Source: a virus (Duplodnaviria > Heunggongvirae > Uroviricota > Caudoviricetes). From it: 64,000 nucleotides of DNA. The translations under genes were made by a program, and so were the position numbers. The stretch is from the IMG/VR virus record IMGVR_UViG_2778261540_000003; one strand, written 5' to 3'. Every line of letters starts with the position of its first letter. The stretch's first letter is position 1. Shown piece by piece: positions 12,503 through 30,477 of the stretch. The notes below the pieces were generated by a model. The model made no database searches, was not told where the DNA came from, and saw nothing but the letters and a program-made list of their open reading frames with translations.

Positions 12503-13176
12503 TGGCACCCACAATTTATCACCGTATCGACGGTACCAAATACAGGAATGTCTGGGTTGTTGGTGATCTGCATGGTTGCTACACCAGACTGATGTCCGAA
12601 CTCCATCGTGTGGATTTTGACCCGGCGCAGGATTTACTGATATCGGTCGGCGACCTTATCGATCGCGGTACTGAAAATGTCGAATGTCTGGAACTATTGC
12701 AGATGCCCTGGTTCAGGGCAGTGATGGGGAACCATGAGCGGCTGATGATTGATGCGTTAAGTCCAGATGGCAACGTGAATAACTGGCTAATGAATGGCGG
12801 ACAATGGTTCTTCATGCTGGACACTGATCAGGAAATATTAGCCTGGGCGCTGGTGGAGCTGGTAAAGCGTCTGCCCTATATCATTGAGTTGAACACGGGG
12901 CAAGAAACTATCGTTATAGCCCATGCCGACTATCCGGATAATGAATACCAATTCGGTAAGGAGGTGCCGCTTTTCAACGTTGTCTGGGCGCGCGAGCGTA
13001 TCAGTGATTCGATGGATGATATTGGTGGCGAAATTTCGGGCGCAGATCGTTTTATCTTTGGTCACACTCCGGTGAAAAGCCCGAAGACATTCTGGAATCA
13101 GCAGTATATCGACACTGGTGCCGTATTTTGCGGAAACCTGACATTGATGAAAGTGAAAGGTGATGGTGCAGCATGA
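12484..13176 (+). CDS. ppp: Ser/Thr protein phosphatase, lambda PPase family
   Basis: High similarity to lambda phosphatase (GDLHGCY, GDLIDRG, GNHE motifs). Confidence 0.85.
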
Positions 13177-13874
13177 AGATTGCTTTAGTTTTTCGCTCTG
13201 GTGGTGACTATAACGCTTCCGATGTGCAGTGGCTGGTTAATCAACTGCCAAAAGGCTATGAAATTATTTGCCTGACAGACCTGAAGCGTTTACATGTACC
13301 TGGCGTCAAAGTTGTCCCATTGATCAACCAGTGGCAAAAGTGCCGTGGCTGGTGGGCGAAAATCGAGTTGTTCCGACCGGATATAACCGATGATCTGTTC
13401 TATCTGGATTTGGACACGGTTATTGCCGGTGATATACGCCCAATCCTAGAGCATCCACCAACCAGCTTCACCATGCTTAGGGATTTTTACCATCCACAAT
13501 ATCGTGGCAGCGGTGCCCTGTGGATACCAAATAGTGTTAAAGCGCATATCTGGAGTTCATTCTGGCAAGATCCGGAAGGTTGGATTTCTCGTTGTGTCAC
13601 TACTGAGTGCTGGGGTGACCAGGGGTTCTTACGAAAGGTTATGGGCGATGATACACCAGCATTTCAGGATCTGTATCCAGGATGGTTTGTAAGTTACAAG
13701 GCCGATGTTGTGGAACCTGGTTCAAAATATGCGAGCGCGCGTTACTCCAGGGGGAATGGGGCATTACCAAAAGACTGCCGAATAATCTTTTTCCACGGCA
13801 AACCGCGACCTCGCGAAGTGTCAGAGGATTGGCTTCCCCTTATCAGCTCATTTTTTGAGCGAGAATCAGAATAA
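13173..13874 (+). CDS. Putative glycosyltransferase (DxD motif)
   Basis: 233 aa with YLDLDTVI DxD-type motif; start overlaps the ppp stop. Confidence 0.45.
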
Positions 13875-13875
13875 T

Positions 13876-13892
13876 ATTGCTCTAATAATTCC
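13876..13892 (+). promoter_or_regulatory. C1 operator-like site
   Basis: attgctctaataattcc matches the operator consensus. Confidence 0.55.
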
Positions 13893-13900
13893 ATATTTTT

Positions 13901-13930
13901 AAAACGTGATGTACACTCATCACGTTTTTT
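13901..13930 (+). terminator. Palindromic hairpin terminator (aaaacgtgatg / catcacgtttt)
   Basis: Perfect 11-bp inverted repeat with 6-nt loop ending in a T-run, directly after the 13173-13874 gene. Confidence 0.55.
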
Positions 13931-13941
13931 ATTAGAGCAAT
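13925..13941 (-). promoter_or_regulatory. C1 operator-like site (inverse orientation)
   Basis: ttttttattagagcaat is the reverse complement of the operator consensus. Confidence 0.5.
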
Positions 13942-14175
13942 CTACAAGGTGCACTATGTGGCCATTCCGACGGAAATATCACTACTGGCTGATCGCCTTT
14001 GTTACGCCGACCGGCGGTATCAGGCATGTCATCACCAGGTATCGCAACAAGAGACTCACCTTAGCCAGAATTTTACAGGCTGCCATAGGTGAGGGACTGG
14101 ATACAAATTGCGTAGTCCTTCCTCCTTCATACTTAGGAAAAATGACCGAAGCACAAGCTAATACGGAACTTTGAA

Positions 14176-15438
14176 ATGAGCACTTCAGCACAAAACCAAT
14201 CAATCGAAAATGTATCTATCCCTGATGTCCTGAATGCCGGTATCCCGGCCATTATCCAGAACATCCGGGCCGCGCAACGCCGCGTTAGTTGTGATGACCT
14301 CACAGCACGTTTTTTTGATAATGCGGTTCAGTCAGCGGAGATGCTTCACGCACAGCTTATTGATGTTTATAACGCAGAAGCTGATAGCCATAACTCCCTG
14401 GTAGATGCAGCTGAAAATATGCAGTTGGATCTCGGTCTGAAGGGTAAAGAAATTGAAGAGCTTCAGCTGCAAATTGAACATTTGAAACGCCAGCAACAGG
14501 ACGCGATCGACGATGCGACGCATGACGCCAACCAGCGTGCTGATAATGCCGAACGTATAAGCATTGAGCTGGAAACAAAACTCAATGAAATGACCGCGAT
14601 GGTTGAACTGCGGAACTCACAGATTTCAACGCTAAAATCTCAATATAAAGAGATCATGAAACTTGATCCTTTTAACCTTGAGAAACGCTATAACAAAGCT
14701 AAAAGCGAGCGACAGGAACTGCGTAAGCAGGTCGCCGACCTTAACCAACAGCTCAAAAAAACTATTAAAGATGCAAGCGAAGCGCGCGTGGCATTTGCTA
14801 ATAAAAAAGCAGAGGTTACCGCGCTGGTTAATGAGAATGCCAAATTTGCGACGCTCAAGAAGGAAATGTATGGCATTACTGAGCGCCGTTTCCCTGCAAG
14901 CAAACTTCATCCGACGTTAGGGCAAATCTCCTTCTTCCCGCGCCTCCTGGCTTATGGGATCTCATCGCCTAAAGAGTTCAATAACGAGCGTCCTTATATC
15001 GTTTCTAAGCTGGACTTTGCTTATCAGTTCTGCTGCGACATGGGCTATGCCATTGATATCCGAATCAACGAATGGTTGATGCCAAACTTCCAGCCGCTGG
15101 CCATTTTCCGCGAGTTCCAGCCGGAAGGTTGGGTAGAGTTCTTCCATGAATTGATCTGTAAAGAGATGGAAAGCCGCCGCCCGGAACTGGTCCGCCGTGT
15201 CGAGTGGGCGCAAGAGGTTATGTTGGCAGATGCAGAGCTGCCGTTCGAACCGGAATTTATTGATGATCTGGCAACTAAAGGGCTGCATACCCTGTTTGAT
15301 GTGGTTACCCGCCGTCATGAGCAGTTGGTTGTCGAATTGGGTTTAGAGGAAACAGCGGCAAGAAGACTTCTCGATGTTTGCTATGCACGTAGCGATGCAT
15401 GGGAAAAAGAGAACGGCGGCACTATTTACGTTCGCTGA
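14176..15438 (+). CDS. Coiled-coil protein with globular C-terminal domain, unknown function
   Basis: 420 aa; residues ~90-230 heptad-rich (EELQLQIEHLKRQQQ...); operator-like sites on both sides of the two-gene unit. Confidence 0.5.
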   Translation: MSTSAQNQSIENVSIPDVLNAGIPAIIQNIRAAQRRVSCDDLTARFFDNAVQSAEMLHAQLIDVYNAEADSHNSLVDAAENMQLDLGLKGKEIEELQLQIEHLKRQQQDAIDDATHDANQRADNAERISIELETKLNEMTAMVELRNSQISTLKSQYKEIMKLDPFNLEKRYNKAKSERQELRKQVADLNQQLKKTIKDASEARVAFANKKAEVTALVNENAKFATLKKEMYGITERRFPASKLHPTLGQISFFPRLLAYGISSPKEFNNERPYIVSKLDFAYQFCCDMGYAIDIRINEWLMPNFQPLAIFREFQPEGWVEFFHELICKEMESRRPELVRRVEWAQEVMLADAELPFEPEFIDDLATKGLHTLFDVVTRRHEQLVVELGLEETAARRLLDVCYARSDAWEKENGGTIYVR

Positions 15439-15510
15439 CAGTTACAGTGTCACTTTTAATGCTGGTGGAGTGCGCCCACCAGCATTTTTTTCGTCCAATG
15501 AGGAGGGCAT

Positions 15511-16017
15511 TTGAGTATTTTCAATAAACACGCACACCAGGAACGTCCGTATATCGTCATAGTTGATATTGATGGAACAATATCAGAGGCAACTGAAGAC
15601 AGACTGCATTTGCTTCCGCCACCAGGTAAAGGTGCATTAACAAAGGACTGGAACGAGTTTAATCTCGCCTGTGACACCGATACTCCCATCACTCCAGTTA
15701 TTGATATGGTGCGCCAGTTATTTAACGTTTACACGGTCTGGTTTGTAACCGGGCGCTGTGAGATCGCAAGGGATAAAACACTAGCCTGGCTGCGGAAGTA
15801 CGTAACAAACGGGGCTGAGCCTTTGCTATCTATGCGTCCTGCCACCGATGACAGAAATGACGGCCCAGCAAAGATTGATCTCCTTAAGAAAATTGGTCTA
15901 AGTAAAATCGCGTTCGCGCTGGAAGATAAGATTGAAGTGGCGCGTGTTTTCAGGAGGCACGGCGTGCTTACGTTAATGGTCAGGGAGTATGAAAACGCGC
16001 TTCTCCATCAACAATGA
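15511..16017 (+). CDS. HAD-superfamily phosphatase-like protein
   Basis: IVIVDIDGTI HAD motif I near the N-terminus; 168 aa. Confidence 0.5.
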   Translation: MSIFNKHAHQERPYIVIVDIDGTISEATEDRLHLLPPPGKGALTKDWNEFNLACDTDTPITPVIDMVRQLFNVYTVWFVTGRCEIARDKTLAWLRKYVTNGAEPLLSMRPATDDRNDGPAKIDLLKKIGLSKIAFALEDKIEVARVFRRHGVLTLMVREYENALLHQQ

Positions 16018-16033
16018 TTGCTCTAATAAATAT
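16017..16033 (+). promoter_or_regulatory. C1 operator-like site
   Basis: attgctctaataaatat. Confidence 0.55.
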
Positions 16034-16115
16034 TGATTTTTAAAACAGAGAAAGTGAAAATAAAAACATGCCGCAAGGCGCGGCATGTATCCAATCAATC
16101 ACAGGAGCTGAAAAT

Positions 16116-16202
16116 ATGAACACGGCATTCAAAATCATTATGGCCGCGATCTATTTCTGGCTGTTCTCTATCACTTTTGGCGGCATCGTCGCACATGGGT
16201 AA
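16116..16202 (+). CDS. Small hydrophobic peptide (28 aa, one TM helix)
   Basis: ATG preceded by AGGAGC Shine-Dalgarno; MNTAFKIIMAAIYFWLFSITFGGIVAHG; below the 60-aa ORF-track threshold. Confidence 0.4.
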   Translation: MNTAFKIIMAAIYFWLFSITFGGIVAHG

Positions 16203-16211
16203 GGGGGATGC

Positions 16212-16793
16212 ATGAAAGGCGAAGTGAAAGAGCGCGGCATGATTTTTAACGATGAGATGGTCCGGGCAATTCTTGGCGGGAATAAAACACAGACTCGCAG
16301 GATTGTTGAAGAAAAATTCTATGGACGGGCAGTGGCCGCAGAGTTGCTTGCCAAGCATTGTCCATATGGTCAACCGGGCGATCGTATTTGGGTTCGCGAA
16401 ACCTACCGGGTACATGGCAAAGCGACGGACGTCGCAACGCTGGTTTATCGCGCAAGCGTGCGTAACTCCTGGACAGAACAAACGCACCGGGTTCCGGTCG
16501 AGGTTTGTAATAAACCAGTATCAGAAAAGTGGACGCCATCAATTCACATGCCGCGCTGGGCATCGCGCATTCTTCTGGAAATTACCAACGTGCGCGTTGA
16601 GCGGTTGAACGATATCAGCGAATGCGATGCAAGGGCTGAGGGCGCACCAACAGAATCGACCCTCATTGGCGATAAGCATTACCCAGGTTTCCGTAGCCTA
16701 TGGAAATCAATTTATGGCGAAGATAGTTGGAACGCTAATCCTTGGGTGTGGGTAATAGAGTTTGAGCGTATTCAGGGGGCAACCAGTGAGTGA
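16212..16793 (+). CDS. Phage accessory protein with MVRAILGGNKTQTRR motif (ASCH/PUA-like family)
   Basis: N-terminal motif recurrent in enterobacterial prophage proteins; RBS AAGGGGGA upstream. Confidence 0.5.
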   Translation: MKGEVKERGMIFNDEMVRAILGGNKTQTRRIVEEKFYGRAVAAELLAKHCPYGQPGDRIWVRETYRVHGKATDVATLVYRASVRNSWTEQTHRVPVEVCNKPVSEKWTPSIHMPRWASRILLEITNVRVERLNDISECDARAEGAPTESTLIGDKHYPGFRSLWKSIYGEDSWNANPWVWVIEFERIQGATSE

Positions 16794-17046
16794 GTCAAAA
16801 TGCCAAATTAATGGCAACAAGATAGAACCGTGCGCGGCGTTGGCACAATCCCTGGAGCATGACGCTGAATACACGACGCGAAAAGGTCTGCTGAAATACA
16901 AAATCTATAACCATGAATTAATTCATTCACAAGACCTGATCATGCTGCGGTCTGGTGAATTTTCTAAATCGCCTATTCGAGTTTCATTTTGCCCGTTCTG
17001 TGGTGAAAGTCTGAAAACGTGGGAAGCGGAGGCAACCAGTGAATAA
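16762..17046 (+). CDS. Small protein with C-terminal CPFCGE zinc-ribbon motif
   Basis: 94-aa ORF overlapping both neighbours. Confidence 0.4.
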   Translation: MSVFRGQPVSESKCQINGNKIEPCAALAQSLEHDAEYTTRKGLLKYKIYNHELIHSQDLIMLRSGEFSKSPIRVSFCPFCGESLKTWEAEATSE

Positions 17047-29625: not shown

Positions 29626-30477
29626 CTATTGCGCGCTTTCGGGGTTGTCGTTTACTGGCTGCCCCTTCTTAGTTTTACGGCTGCGCGTAACTGATGCGGC
29701 TGATTTGACCTTTTTCTCTTCGCGAGTGATGGCAATTTGTTTTTTTACATTTTCAATATCTGCCAGGCGATATATTTTTGCCTGCGGCCAGCGGTCGCAG
29801 ATGATCGGTTCTATAGAGTCATAAAGGCTAAATTTTGCTTTCTCGAATTCACCGTTGATGATGATTCCATCACGGAGAGTTTCATCGCAGATAAACACAC
29901 CACACAGCGGCACATGGTAACTAACTGATTTACCATCATTGTAGTTAGGGCTACTGGAAATGTAATGGACGCGCAGCATTGTTTCGCTAAAGCCGTGTAC
30001 ACGCATACGGAATTTTTCATCCTCCGGGTACTGCTTCATTAGCTCTTTTGTTGCTTCCAGGTTCTCTATGTATTTCGCACTGTGCTCATTGATCCCCGCG
30101 CTTTTCTGGATGCGAATGTCCTTATCAATCAGATGAATAATGCGGCCAGCGGTCATGTTGACGCTGTTCACAGCTTCTGTCTGATAAGTTGTAACCTTAC
30201 GCACACCGCGAAGGATGTTAGGCACTGGATATAAAATAGTCTTTGGGATATTGAGGTCTGGGTACTGTTCCAGTTCTCGCGCCATTAAAGTCCATTTATC
30301 AATTTCAGCCTGAATGCTGTCCGTTTCTTTGAACGGCAGAACGACAACCGGGCGTACAGGACGACCGTCGCTGGCGGCATCAACGTGTTGGGCGCGTGCA
30401 ACAGCTTTTTTTAGAAAGAGATCCCTGAAGCTGACGAACTCCTGGTACAGTTGTTCGCCGTAGACATAATTTATCAT
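29626..30477 (-). CDS. c1: C1 repressor of lytic functions
   Basis: 283 aa; position next to coi and operator cluster; matches the remembered size of P1 C1. Confidence 0.8.
   Translation of the reverse strand: MINYVYGEQLYQEFVSFRDLFLKKAVARAQHVDAASDGRPVRPVVVLPFKETDSIQAEIDKWTLMARELEQYPDLNIPKTILYPVPNILRGVRKVTTYQTEAVNSVNMTAGRIIHLIDKDIRIQKSAGINEHSAKYIENLEATKELMKQYPEDEKFRMRVHGFSETMLRVHYISSSPNYNDGKSVSYHVPLCGVFICDETLRDGIIINGEFEKAKFSLYDSIEPIICDRWPQAKIYRLADIENVKKQIAITREEKKVKSAASVTRSRKTKKGQPVNDNPESAQ

Follow-up and report, generated by a model that had tools for sequence, protein, structure and literature searches.

The C1-controlled pmgR–pmgS segment of a P1/P7-type phage-plasmid and a candidate control module of nested terminator, promoter and operators

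The stretch of DNA analyzed here (64,000 nucleotides (nt) of the Caudoviricetes record IMGVR_UViG_2778261540_000003; hereafter the window, meaning the whole stretch) carries, between positions 13,876 and 16,033, the segment Op86 - pmgR - pmgS - (pap) - Op88 of a P1/P7-type phage-plasmid. The segment is already annotated and its control by the prophage repressor C1 is known; it would represent one of three consecutive left-to-right transcription units that C1 silences. Our explanation as a whole, i.e. a known C1-silenced unit headed by a nested module of terminator, promoter and operators and followed by a pap gene that depends on read-through, is considered probable. A more specific proposal is put forward tentatively, and with clearly less confidence: that a 66-bp element unites the terminator, the promoter and the operators; that the -10 hexamer lies in or beside the terminator loop, with convergent C1 operators at about -40 and +9; that transcripts lacking the 5' arm of the hairpin continue; that the promoter in the P1 record is misplaced; and that the slot behind the pmgS terminator takes up, as cargo, enzymes that act on nucleic-acid ends (pap, or pap together with a DEDD exonuclease).

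The region 13400-16400 was matched over nearly its full length by 19 phage records, with identities of 99.8% to Salmonella phage SJ46, 99.4% to P7 and 98.6% to P1; the window is therefore assigned by sequence to the P1/P7-type phage-plasmids (Punavirus). P1 (GenBank AF234172, 82152-84309) has the identical gene order and the operators at homologous positions, the segment itself being 98.6% identical; the genes annotated there are pmgQ, pmgR, pmgS, pap and pmgT. P7 (GenBank AF503408), in which the elements are named Op(sht[a]), Op(sht[b]), shtA, shtB, pap and Op(hea), and SJ46 show no substantial difference from the window segment, and likeness to these two extends to the downstream genes; similarity to P1 stops at about position 16267, with P7/SJ46-type genes beyond. 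The 121-bp control region is 100% identical among the window, P1 and P7, and 686 plasmid records carry a copy of the Op86 control module. The window also encodes the repressor, as a 283-amino-acid (aa) open reading frame (ORF) at 29626-30477 on the minus strand that is 99.6% identical to annotated C1 proteins.

Diverged relatives were found by tblastn against phages and plasmids and by exact-protein look-ups, and the module was compared among seven lineages, namely the window together with P1 and P7, and six diverged lineages. The relatives comprise Cronobacter phage JK004 (L003; PmgS about 70% identical), Salmonella plasmids with two distinct control-region sequences (L004, L007 and L008; PmgS 69-74%), and the metagenomic contigs L018 (PmgS 63%), L009 and L016 (both PmgS 53%). 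A scan of species-representative genomes with PmgS yielded two near-identical E. coli loci only.

The C1 operator consensus is a 17-bp asymmetric site, ATTGCTCTAATAAATTT, which is matched 15 times in the window as against 0.27 matches expected from shuffles (0 of 100 shuffles reached 15). An earlier, sequence-only reading of the window had placed three operator copies in this segment; all three are present, with three, three and one mismatches to the consensus, and they correspond to the annotated C1 operators Op86a, Op86b and Op88 (Table 1). All of their mismatches lie outside the core ATTGCTCTAAT (ATTGCTCTAATAA, GCTCTAAT); those of Op86a and Op86b fall in the AT-rich 3' part and leave the core ATTGCTCTAATAA intact. 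The core of Op86a is kept in the seven lineages and that of Op86b, TTGCTCTAAT, is invariant in all of them, while the intervening spacers diverge. The span from the first to the second operator is 66 nt in every one of the seven, and the arrangement of first operator, hairpin and inverted second operator within this span recurs in all six diverged lineages. The C1 control that had been proposed is supported by the P1 and P7 annotations, the identical control region and the c1 gene in the window; AF234172 describes OpmgRa as a monovalent C1-controlled operator, formerly Op86a, that 'controls expression of pmgR and pmgS'. Op88 of P1 differs from that of the window by one base (...AAATCT in P1, ...AAATAT in the window). 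A further pair of overlapping, oppositely oriented operator matches, ATTGCTCTAATAAATTT and ATTACACTAATAAATTT, forms a bivalent operator at the start of the window (positions 16-43).

It might be argued that the operator-like sites near pmgR are non-functional relics and that the unit is constitutive or late (Lpa-dependent), in line with its 'morphogenetic' naming. The three mismatches in each of Op86a and Op86b agree with this, as does the requirement of pmgR for virion assembly, a late function. We regard the idea as highly improbable in view of the intact cores and their invariance amid diverging spacers; moreover, both sites are annotated as C1 operators in the P1 and P7 records, and no late-promoter-like site lies within 3.5 kb upstream. 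A late-promoter pattern built from four annotated P1 late promoters had no match on the plus strand between 10.3 and 19.3 kb, and a late promoter for pmgR or for pap was rejected on this basis. A leftward promoter from Op86b was also rejected, as there is no -10 hexamer at proper spacing and no gene to serve.

Between Op86a and Op86b lies a perfect 11-bp inverted repeat (arms AAAACGTGATG and CATCACGTTTT) followed by TTTTTT, the palindrome having been recognized in the sequence-only reading and confirmed here with a folding energy of -13.4 kcal/mol (z = -6.6); 7 of the 11 bp form a G-C-containing core. The hairpin with its T-run begins 27 nt 3' of the stop codon of pmgQ, the last gene of an upstream C1-controlled operon (Oppp/Op83, 10252-10268) that ends 2 nt before Op86a, and the A-rich end of Op86b coincides with the T-run. 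A hairpin is found at this place in all seven lineages (-13.4 to -19.1 kcal/mol, z from -5 to -6.7), with 92-98% of cells in the stem paired and 3 of 11 pairs compensatory, values above those of shuffled and slid controls. The stem sequences vary by lineage (CGTGATG/CATCACG, CATGGTG/CACCATG, GTGTGGTG/CGCCACAT), and the stem of L018, displaced in register by 3 nt, still comprises 11 bp. The intrinsic-terminator form of A-tract, stem and T6 is present in five of the seven lineages. Within the P1 group, an E. fergusonii plasmid (L014) carries a naturally occurring variant, in which a T-to-C change at the homologue of position 13920 (CATCACG to CACCACG in the 3' arm) leaves one uncompensated A-C mismatch in the stem.

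The upstream pmgN-pmgQ operon probably has its intrinsic terminator in this hairpin. The sequence-only reading had set it ahead of the unit as a terminator; the hairpin itself is real, lies inside the promoter-operator module and most likely terminates pmgN-pmgQ. Alternatively, the hairpin could be a leader or attenuator, or a processing or stability element, of a pmgR-pmgS transcript that arises upstream or reads through from pmgQ, its passage being regulated. For such a role speak the longer hairpins of L009 and L016 (-16 to -19 kcal/mol), which have no T-run, and the pairing of the two operators that would occur in a read-through RNA, giving a 24-bp composite stem of -26.9 kcal/mol that could serve as an RNase III or stability element. 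This pairing is, however, explained by the presence of two copies of one protein-binding site; there is no promoter-like site with acceptable hexamers upstream of the hairpin, the canonical terminator form prevails in five of seven lineages, and we know of no antiterminator for this region. A leader or processing role as the main explanation is therefore judged quite unlikely.

The P1 record annotates no terminators in this region and puts the -10 hexamer of pmgR at TAAAAC (Model A in Table 1). The T at the last position of a -10 hexamer is near-invariant; the annotated hexamer is without it in 7 of 7 lineages and degenerates to TGAAGC, TGCGGC or TTAAGG in relatives, though the module as a whole is kept, and this promoter scores 7/12 in the window and 4-7/12 in the six other lineages. 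A TAnnnT hexamer (TACACT, TATCAT or TATTAT; Model B in Table 1) is found at the same position in all seven lineages, where it constitutes the hairpin loop in six and lies partly within the stem in L018, and together with its -35 hexamer it scores 8-9/12 in six relatives (TTGATT-16-TATTAT, TTTACT-16-TATCAT). Since TAnnnT is kept in seven lineages, the relatives score 8-9/12 and the geometry is as at Op88, the comparison suggests that the loop hexamer is the better -10 candidate and favours a start at about 13924. At Op88, the operator is followed by TTGATT-17-GAAAAT, and in L009 and L016 TTGATT-16-TATTAT stands behind Op86a at an equal offset, so that Op86a has the appearance of a copied Op88-type cassette. 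The two differ in that the Op88 cassette has a single operator and a hairpin downstream of the predicted start, whereas Op86 has the palindrome around the -10 hexamer and a second, inverted operator.

The annotated promoter is retained here as a competing, rather unlikely, reading, with its -35 hexamer TTGCTC inside Op86a, its -10 hexamer over the 5' arm of the hairpin, a start in the loop at about 13912, and Op86b acting as a roadblock at about +13 to +29. It is so annotated in AF234172, has the canonical 17-nt spacing, recurs as the geometry TTGCTC-17-TAAAAC after Op88 (annotated there as P2pmgT), equals the loop-hexamer promoter in its score for the window, and would also yield transcripts that escape the hairpin. 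Against it stand the missing last-position T and the decay of the hexamer in relatives, and the promoter of the record is a prediction and not mapped; the P1vir RNA-seq papers are at gene level only and give no start sites.

In the arrangement that we favour, i.e. with the loop hexamer as -10, the 66-bp module after the pmgQ stop would consist of Op86a, the hairpin with its T-run, and the inverted Op86b. Hairpin and T-run would end the upstream pmgN-pmgQ transcripts. The pmgR-pmgS promoter would be nested in the same module, its -10 most likely being the loop TAnnnT, with initiation near 13924, within the 3' arm or the T-run. RNAs initiated inside the module would miss the 5' arm and so escape termination, which holds for either promoter. 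C1 would cover about -48 to -32 via Op86a and about +1 to +17 via Op86b, and upon inactivation of C1 the host sigma-70 RNA polymerase would transcribe pmgR and pmgS.

Several points count against this arrangement. The covariation statistics are weak, because the comparison covers seven lineages. L009 and L016 keep the hairpin and have lost the T-run (CTTGATT), and termination is therefore not the sole conserved role of the hairpin. A simple terminator scan gave no call for the hairpin at 13901-13928, probably since the maximal stem consumes part of the T-run, and the consensus promoter scan called nothing at the Op86 control region. In the window, P1 and P7, TACACT with ATTCCA or TCCATA scores 7/12, which does not exceed the score of the annotated TTGCTC-17-TAAAAC. 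The start site, the terminations and the read-through are deduced from sequence, and C1 binding at Op86a and Op86b is taken from GenBank annotation and not from a primary source. The only promoter-like site that the scan reported in the region (ATGACC-17-GATAAT, 9/12) lies at 14288-14322 in the 5' part of pmgS, where it overlaps a weak hairpin followed by TTTTTTT; it is probably due to chance, since more promoter-like sites turned up in the shuffles than in the scan.

The unit had been taken for two genes, a coiled-coil protein and a HAD-like phosphatase. Both of these proteins (420 aa and 168 aa) were confirmed, and there are three genes, the 72-aa pmgR having been overlooked. A single base separates the pmgR stop from the pmgS ATG, and the conserved core is, as read from this junction, the translationally coupled pair pmgR-pmgS. 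The pap gene lies behind a second terminator-like hairpin, at 15458-15486 between the 420-aa and phosphatase genes, which the sequence-only reading had missed; this hairpin has a folding energy of -18.1 kcal/mol (z = -3.9) and was called by the terminator scan. JK004 has a hairpin of other sequence and a T8 run at the matching position, so that a terminator after pmgS appears conserved there in position, not in sequence. A sigma-70 promoter of its own for pap was rejected, with none of at least 8/12 found in 15200-15520.

The slot between the pmgS terminator and Op88 varies among the relatives. Nothing occupies it in the Salmonella lineages and in L018 (4663-4728 in L004), and L004, L007, L008 and L018 thus are missing pap and keep all else. 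In the window, P1, P7 and JK004 it is filled by pap, and in L009 (5360-6153) by a 101-aa ORF and pap; L016 (2762-4116) has there, besides the 101-aa ORF and pap, an Rv2179c-like DEDD 3'-5' exonuclease (Pfam, 1.7e-48). Because a terminator precedes pap, no promoter was found and the slot varies, pap is to be read as accessory cargo outside the conserved pmgR-pmgS core, and its expression probably depends on read-through: most transcripts would stop at the strong terminator (15458-15493), and pap would be reached by read-through only. The company of pap in L016 hints at nucleic-acid-end processing.

The Pap protein matches the Pfam family HAD_PNKP (PF25109) with 45.9 bits at a cut-off of 27.6 (E = 8e-12). 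Motif I (DxDxT) is represented by D19-I-D21-G-T23, and alignment to residues 207-302 of Capnocytophaga Pnkp1 (4xrp) places T80 in motif II, K121 in motif III and E138-D139 in motif IV, where Pnkp1 has D-D. Pap is thus predicted to be a PNKP-phosphatase-type HAD phosphatase that lacks a kinase domain. Set beside T4 Pnkp and Pnkp1, it has HAD motif I, with residues aligning at motifs II and III; it differs from both in having no kinase part, and an RNA ligase partner was not seen in the region. No GxxxxGK[ST] (Walker A) motif occurs in Pap, and the phosphatase domain fills all 168 residues. Because of this length and the missing P-loop, Pap is not a PNKP and is merely related to its phosphatase domain; a bifunctional polynucleotide kinase-phosphatase of the T4 Pnkp type was rejected, there being no N-terminal P-loop kinase domain. 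The record name '3'-phosphatase, 5'-polynucleotide kinase' overstates what the sequence supports.

Op88 had been thought to close the unit, the operators bracketing it from both sides. It is present in all lineages with the -35 hexamer TTGATT directly after it, and it overlaps the promoter TTGATT-17-GAAAAT, the position of which is conserved in relatives. Op88 is therefore best read as the operator/promoter of the next, variable operon, which neither delimits nor co-regulates the pmgR-pmgS unit; with its promoter it would start a unit whose gene content differs among phages. Of the eight variable regions in P1-like phage-plasmids, one is the block that follows Op88 (PMC9603915); this is consistent with the end of the P1 match near 16267. 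After Op88, every lineage shows the same order of promoter (TTGATT-17-(G/A)AnAAT), stem-loop, CAATCAATCA motif and a small hydrophobic ORF. At the position of the stem-loop, which would lie at the 5' end of the downstream mRNA, the relatives have a differently sequenced, always pairing stem-loop with no minus-strand T-run; the minus-strand terminator that the scan also called is unlikely, as this T-run is absent in relatives.

The model of the sequence-only reading, i.e. three operators bracketing a self-contained two-gene operon that has a terminator ahead, is repressed as a block and encodes products of unassigned function, is improbable on these grounds. Operators and palindrome are real, and pmgS and pap are adjacent and co-oriented between Op86 and Op88; an RNA-seq preprint also reports for an hfq mutant that pmgS and pap respond alike, and pmgR and pmgQ differently. 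Yet pmgS is separated from the operators by pmgR, with which it is coupled, a conserved strong terminator splits pmgS from pap, pap is absent in four relatives, and Op88 overlaps the conserved promoter of the next unit. The functions of the products are also partly known, given the role of pmgR in head completion and the HAD_PNKP match of Pap.

The gene pmgR is one of five newly found essential genes of P1; its deletion leads to unjoined heads and tails, as established by knockout and complementation (PMC9024508), and PmgR is hence a small protein essential for head completion. A sequence search of the PDB with PmgR was empty. In a set of 77 P1-like phage-plasmids, both pmgR and pmgS are listed with the 21 genes of highest conservation (PMC9603915). 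Both pmgS and pap are non-essential, by deletion and by CRISPR interference (CRISPRi) (PMC10695390).

In PmgS, a long coiled coil (residues about 41-232) is followed by a small region rich in beta structure (about 240-305), and the helical C-terminal part finishes with an (HhH)2-like domain, for which the predicted model shows the two-hairpin, five-helix arrangement of the (HhH)2 fold. The profile search proposed for this 420-aa protein by the sequence-only reading gave no significant Pfam match for the window protein; HHH_5 is matched in one homologue that is 27% identical (1.7e-7). The PDB sequence search returned coiled-coil noise only, and NCBIfam sub-threshold SMC/Rad50 coiled-coil matches only. 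Two facts speak against the (HhH)2 assignment: the structure model is of moderate confidence only (pLDDT 70), and the window PmgS, like its close relatives, is without a Pfam HhH match. The closest known domains are the (HhH)2 domains of the RAD51/RadA N-terminal domain, NusA AR and the RNA polymerase alpha C-terminal domain; PmgS differs from these systems in that a coiled coil of some 190 residues and a middle part without assignment are joined to the domain, and in that the window protein has no significant Pfam match. PmgS probably binds nucleic acid or a partner protein, and it is probably not a virion part. The virion proteome paper has PmgS neither in its text nor in its tables (PMC9024508), and because that paper never mentions it, the 'morphogenetic', 'head' and 'sheath' labels of PmgS look positional, not evidential.

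Table 1. Features of the Op86 - pmgR - pmgS - (pap) - Op88 segment and its flanks (window coordinates).
Feature	Coordinates	Strand	Description
pmgQ / hdmD (233 aa)	13173..13874	+	ORF list; P1 and P7 annotation; PHROG 1962 'glycosyltransferase', E = 2.5e-128
Op86a / OpmgRa / Op(sht[a])	13876..13892	+	ATTGCTCTAATAATTCC; protein_bind 'phage repressor C1' in P1 and P7
Model A, PpmgR per P1 record (predicted)	13877..13905	+	-35 TTGCTC 13877-13882, 17-nt spacer, -10 TAAAAC 13900-13905
Model B, alternative promoter (candidate)	13888..13917	+	-35 ATTCCA 13888-13893, 18-nt spacer, -10 TACACT 13912-13917
Perfect 11-bp inverted repeat with T-run	13901..13930	+	5' arm 13901-13911, 6-nt loop 13912-13917, 3' arm 13918-13928
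Op86b / OpmgRb / Op(sht[b])	13925..13941	-	ATTGCTCTAATAAAAAA; inverted relative to Op86a; annotated in P1 and P7
pmgR / shtA (72 aa)	13956..14174	+	ORF; P1/P7 annotation; PHROG 3177, E = 4e-47
pmgS / shtB (420 aa)	14176..15438	+	coiled-coil protein
13-bp palindromic motif	15441..15453	.	GTTACAGTGTCAC (pattern GTNACANTGTNAC); 2 nt after pmgS stop
Intrinsic-terminator-like hairpin, pmgS/pap gap	15458..15493 (stem-loop 15458-15486)	+	11-bp stem, 6 G-C, 7-nt loop, T7
pap (168 aa)	15511..16017	+	TTG start, ribosome-binding site GAGGAGGG; Pfam PF25109; PHROG 415, E = 2e-56
Op88 / OpmgT / Op(hea)	16017..16033	+	ATTGCTCTAATAAATAT; annotated in P1 and P7
P1pmgT-type promoter	16033..16061	+	TTGATT-17-GAAAAT; P1 annotation; relaxed scan 8/12
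Stem-loop at predicted 5' end of downstream mRNA	16066..16088	+	scan also calls minus-strand terminator
Small hydrophobic ORF (28 aa)	16117-16202		MNTAFKIIMAAIYFWLFSITFGGIVAHG; 'membrane protein' in SJ46; no gene annotated in P1 record

The 13-bp palindromic motif behind pmgS (Table 1) is recognizable in every P1-like lineage compared, including those without pap; the copies of JK004 and L009 deviate from the exact pattern. A repeated operator was rejected, as the window holds a single exact copy, and the motif is not a late promoter. In a still more distant relative (L011; PmgS 27% identical), the order of pmgQ-like, pmgR-like and pmgS-like genes is kept downstream of a DarB-like methylase-helicase; C1 operators are missing there, and a 15-bp inverted repeat (AAGATACTAATTTAT...ATAAATTAGTATCTT) before the pmgR-like gene (5700-5760) may be an operator pair of a different repressor. 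An Rfam search of 13000-17000 gave two chance-level matches and nothing else. Record names in the region conflict: P1 calls pmgQ 'putative morphogenetic', P7 lists it as HdmD, 'head morphogenesis', and PHROGs and RefSeq have it as 'glycosyltransferase'; the P7 labels 'sheath structure' and 'sheath contraction' for pmgR and pmgS clash with the phenotype of the P1 pmgR knockout (PMC9024508).

Operators, genes and C1 control are already contained in the P1/P7 reference annotation, and the finding is real but ordinary in this respect. The new points are modest: a reference pmgR promoter that is probably misplaced, two unannotated conserved terminators, a variable pap slot, and the (HhH)2 end of PmgS. 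The database names of PmgS ('head morphogenesis', 'sheath contraction') and of Pap ('polynucleotide kinase') are not supported by the sequences as read here. If the nested module is true, the promoter that the P1 reference record has carried since 2004 for pmgR, a gene essential for assembly, would be at the wrong hexamer. E. coli genetics leans heavily on P1, and phage-plasmids of the P1 type disseminate resistance genes; engineering and annotation alike therefore benefit when the transcription units of these elements are mapped accurately.

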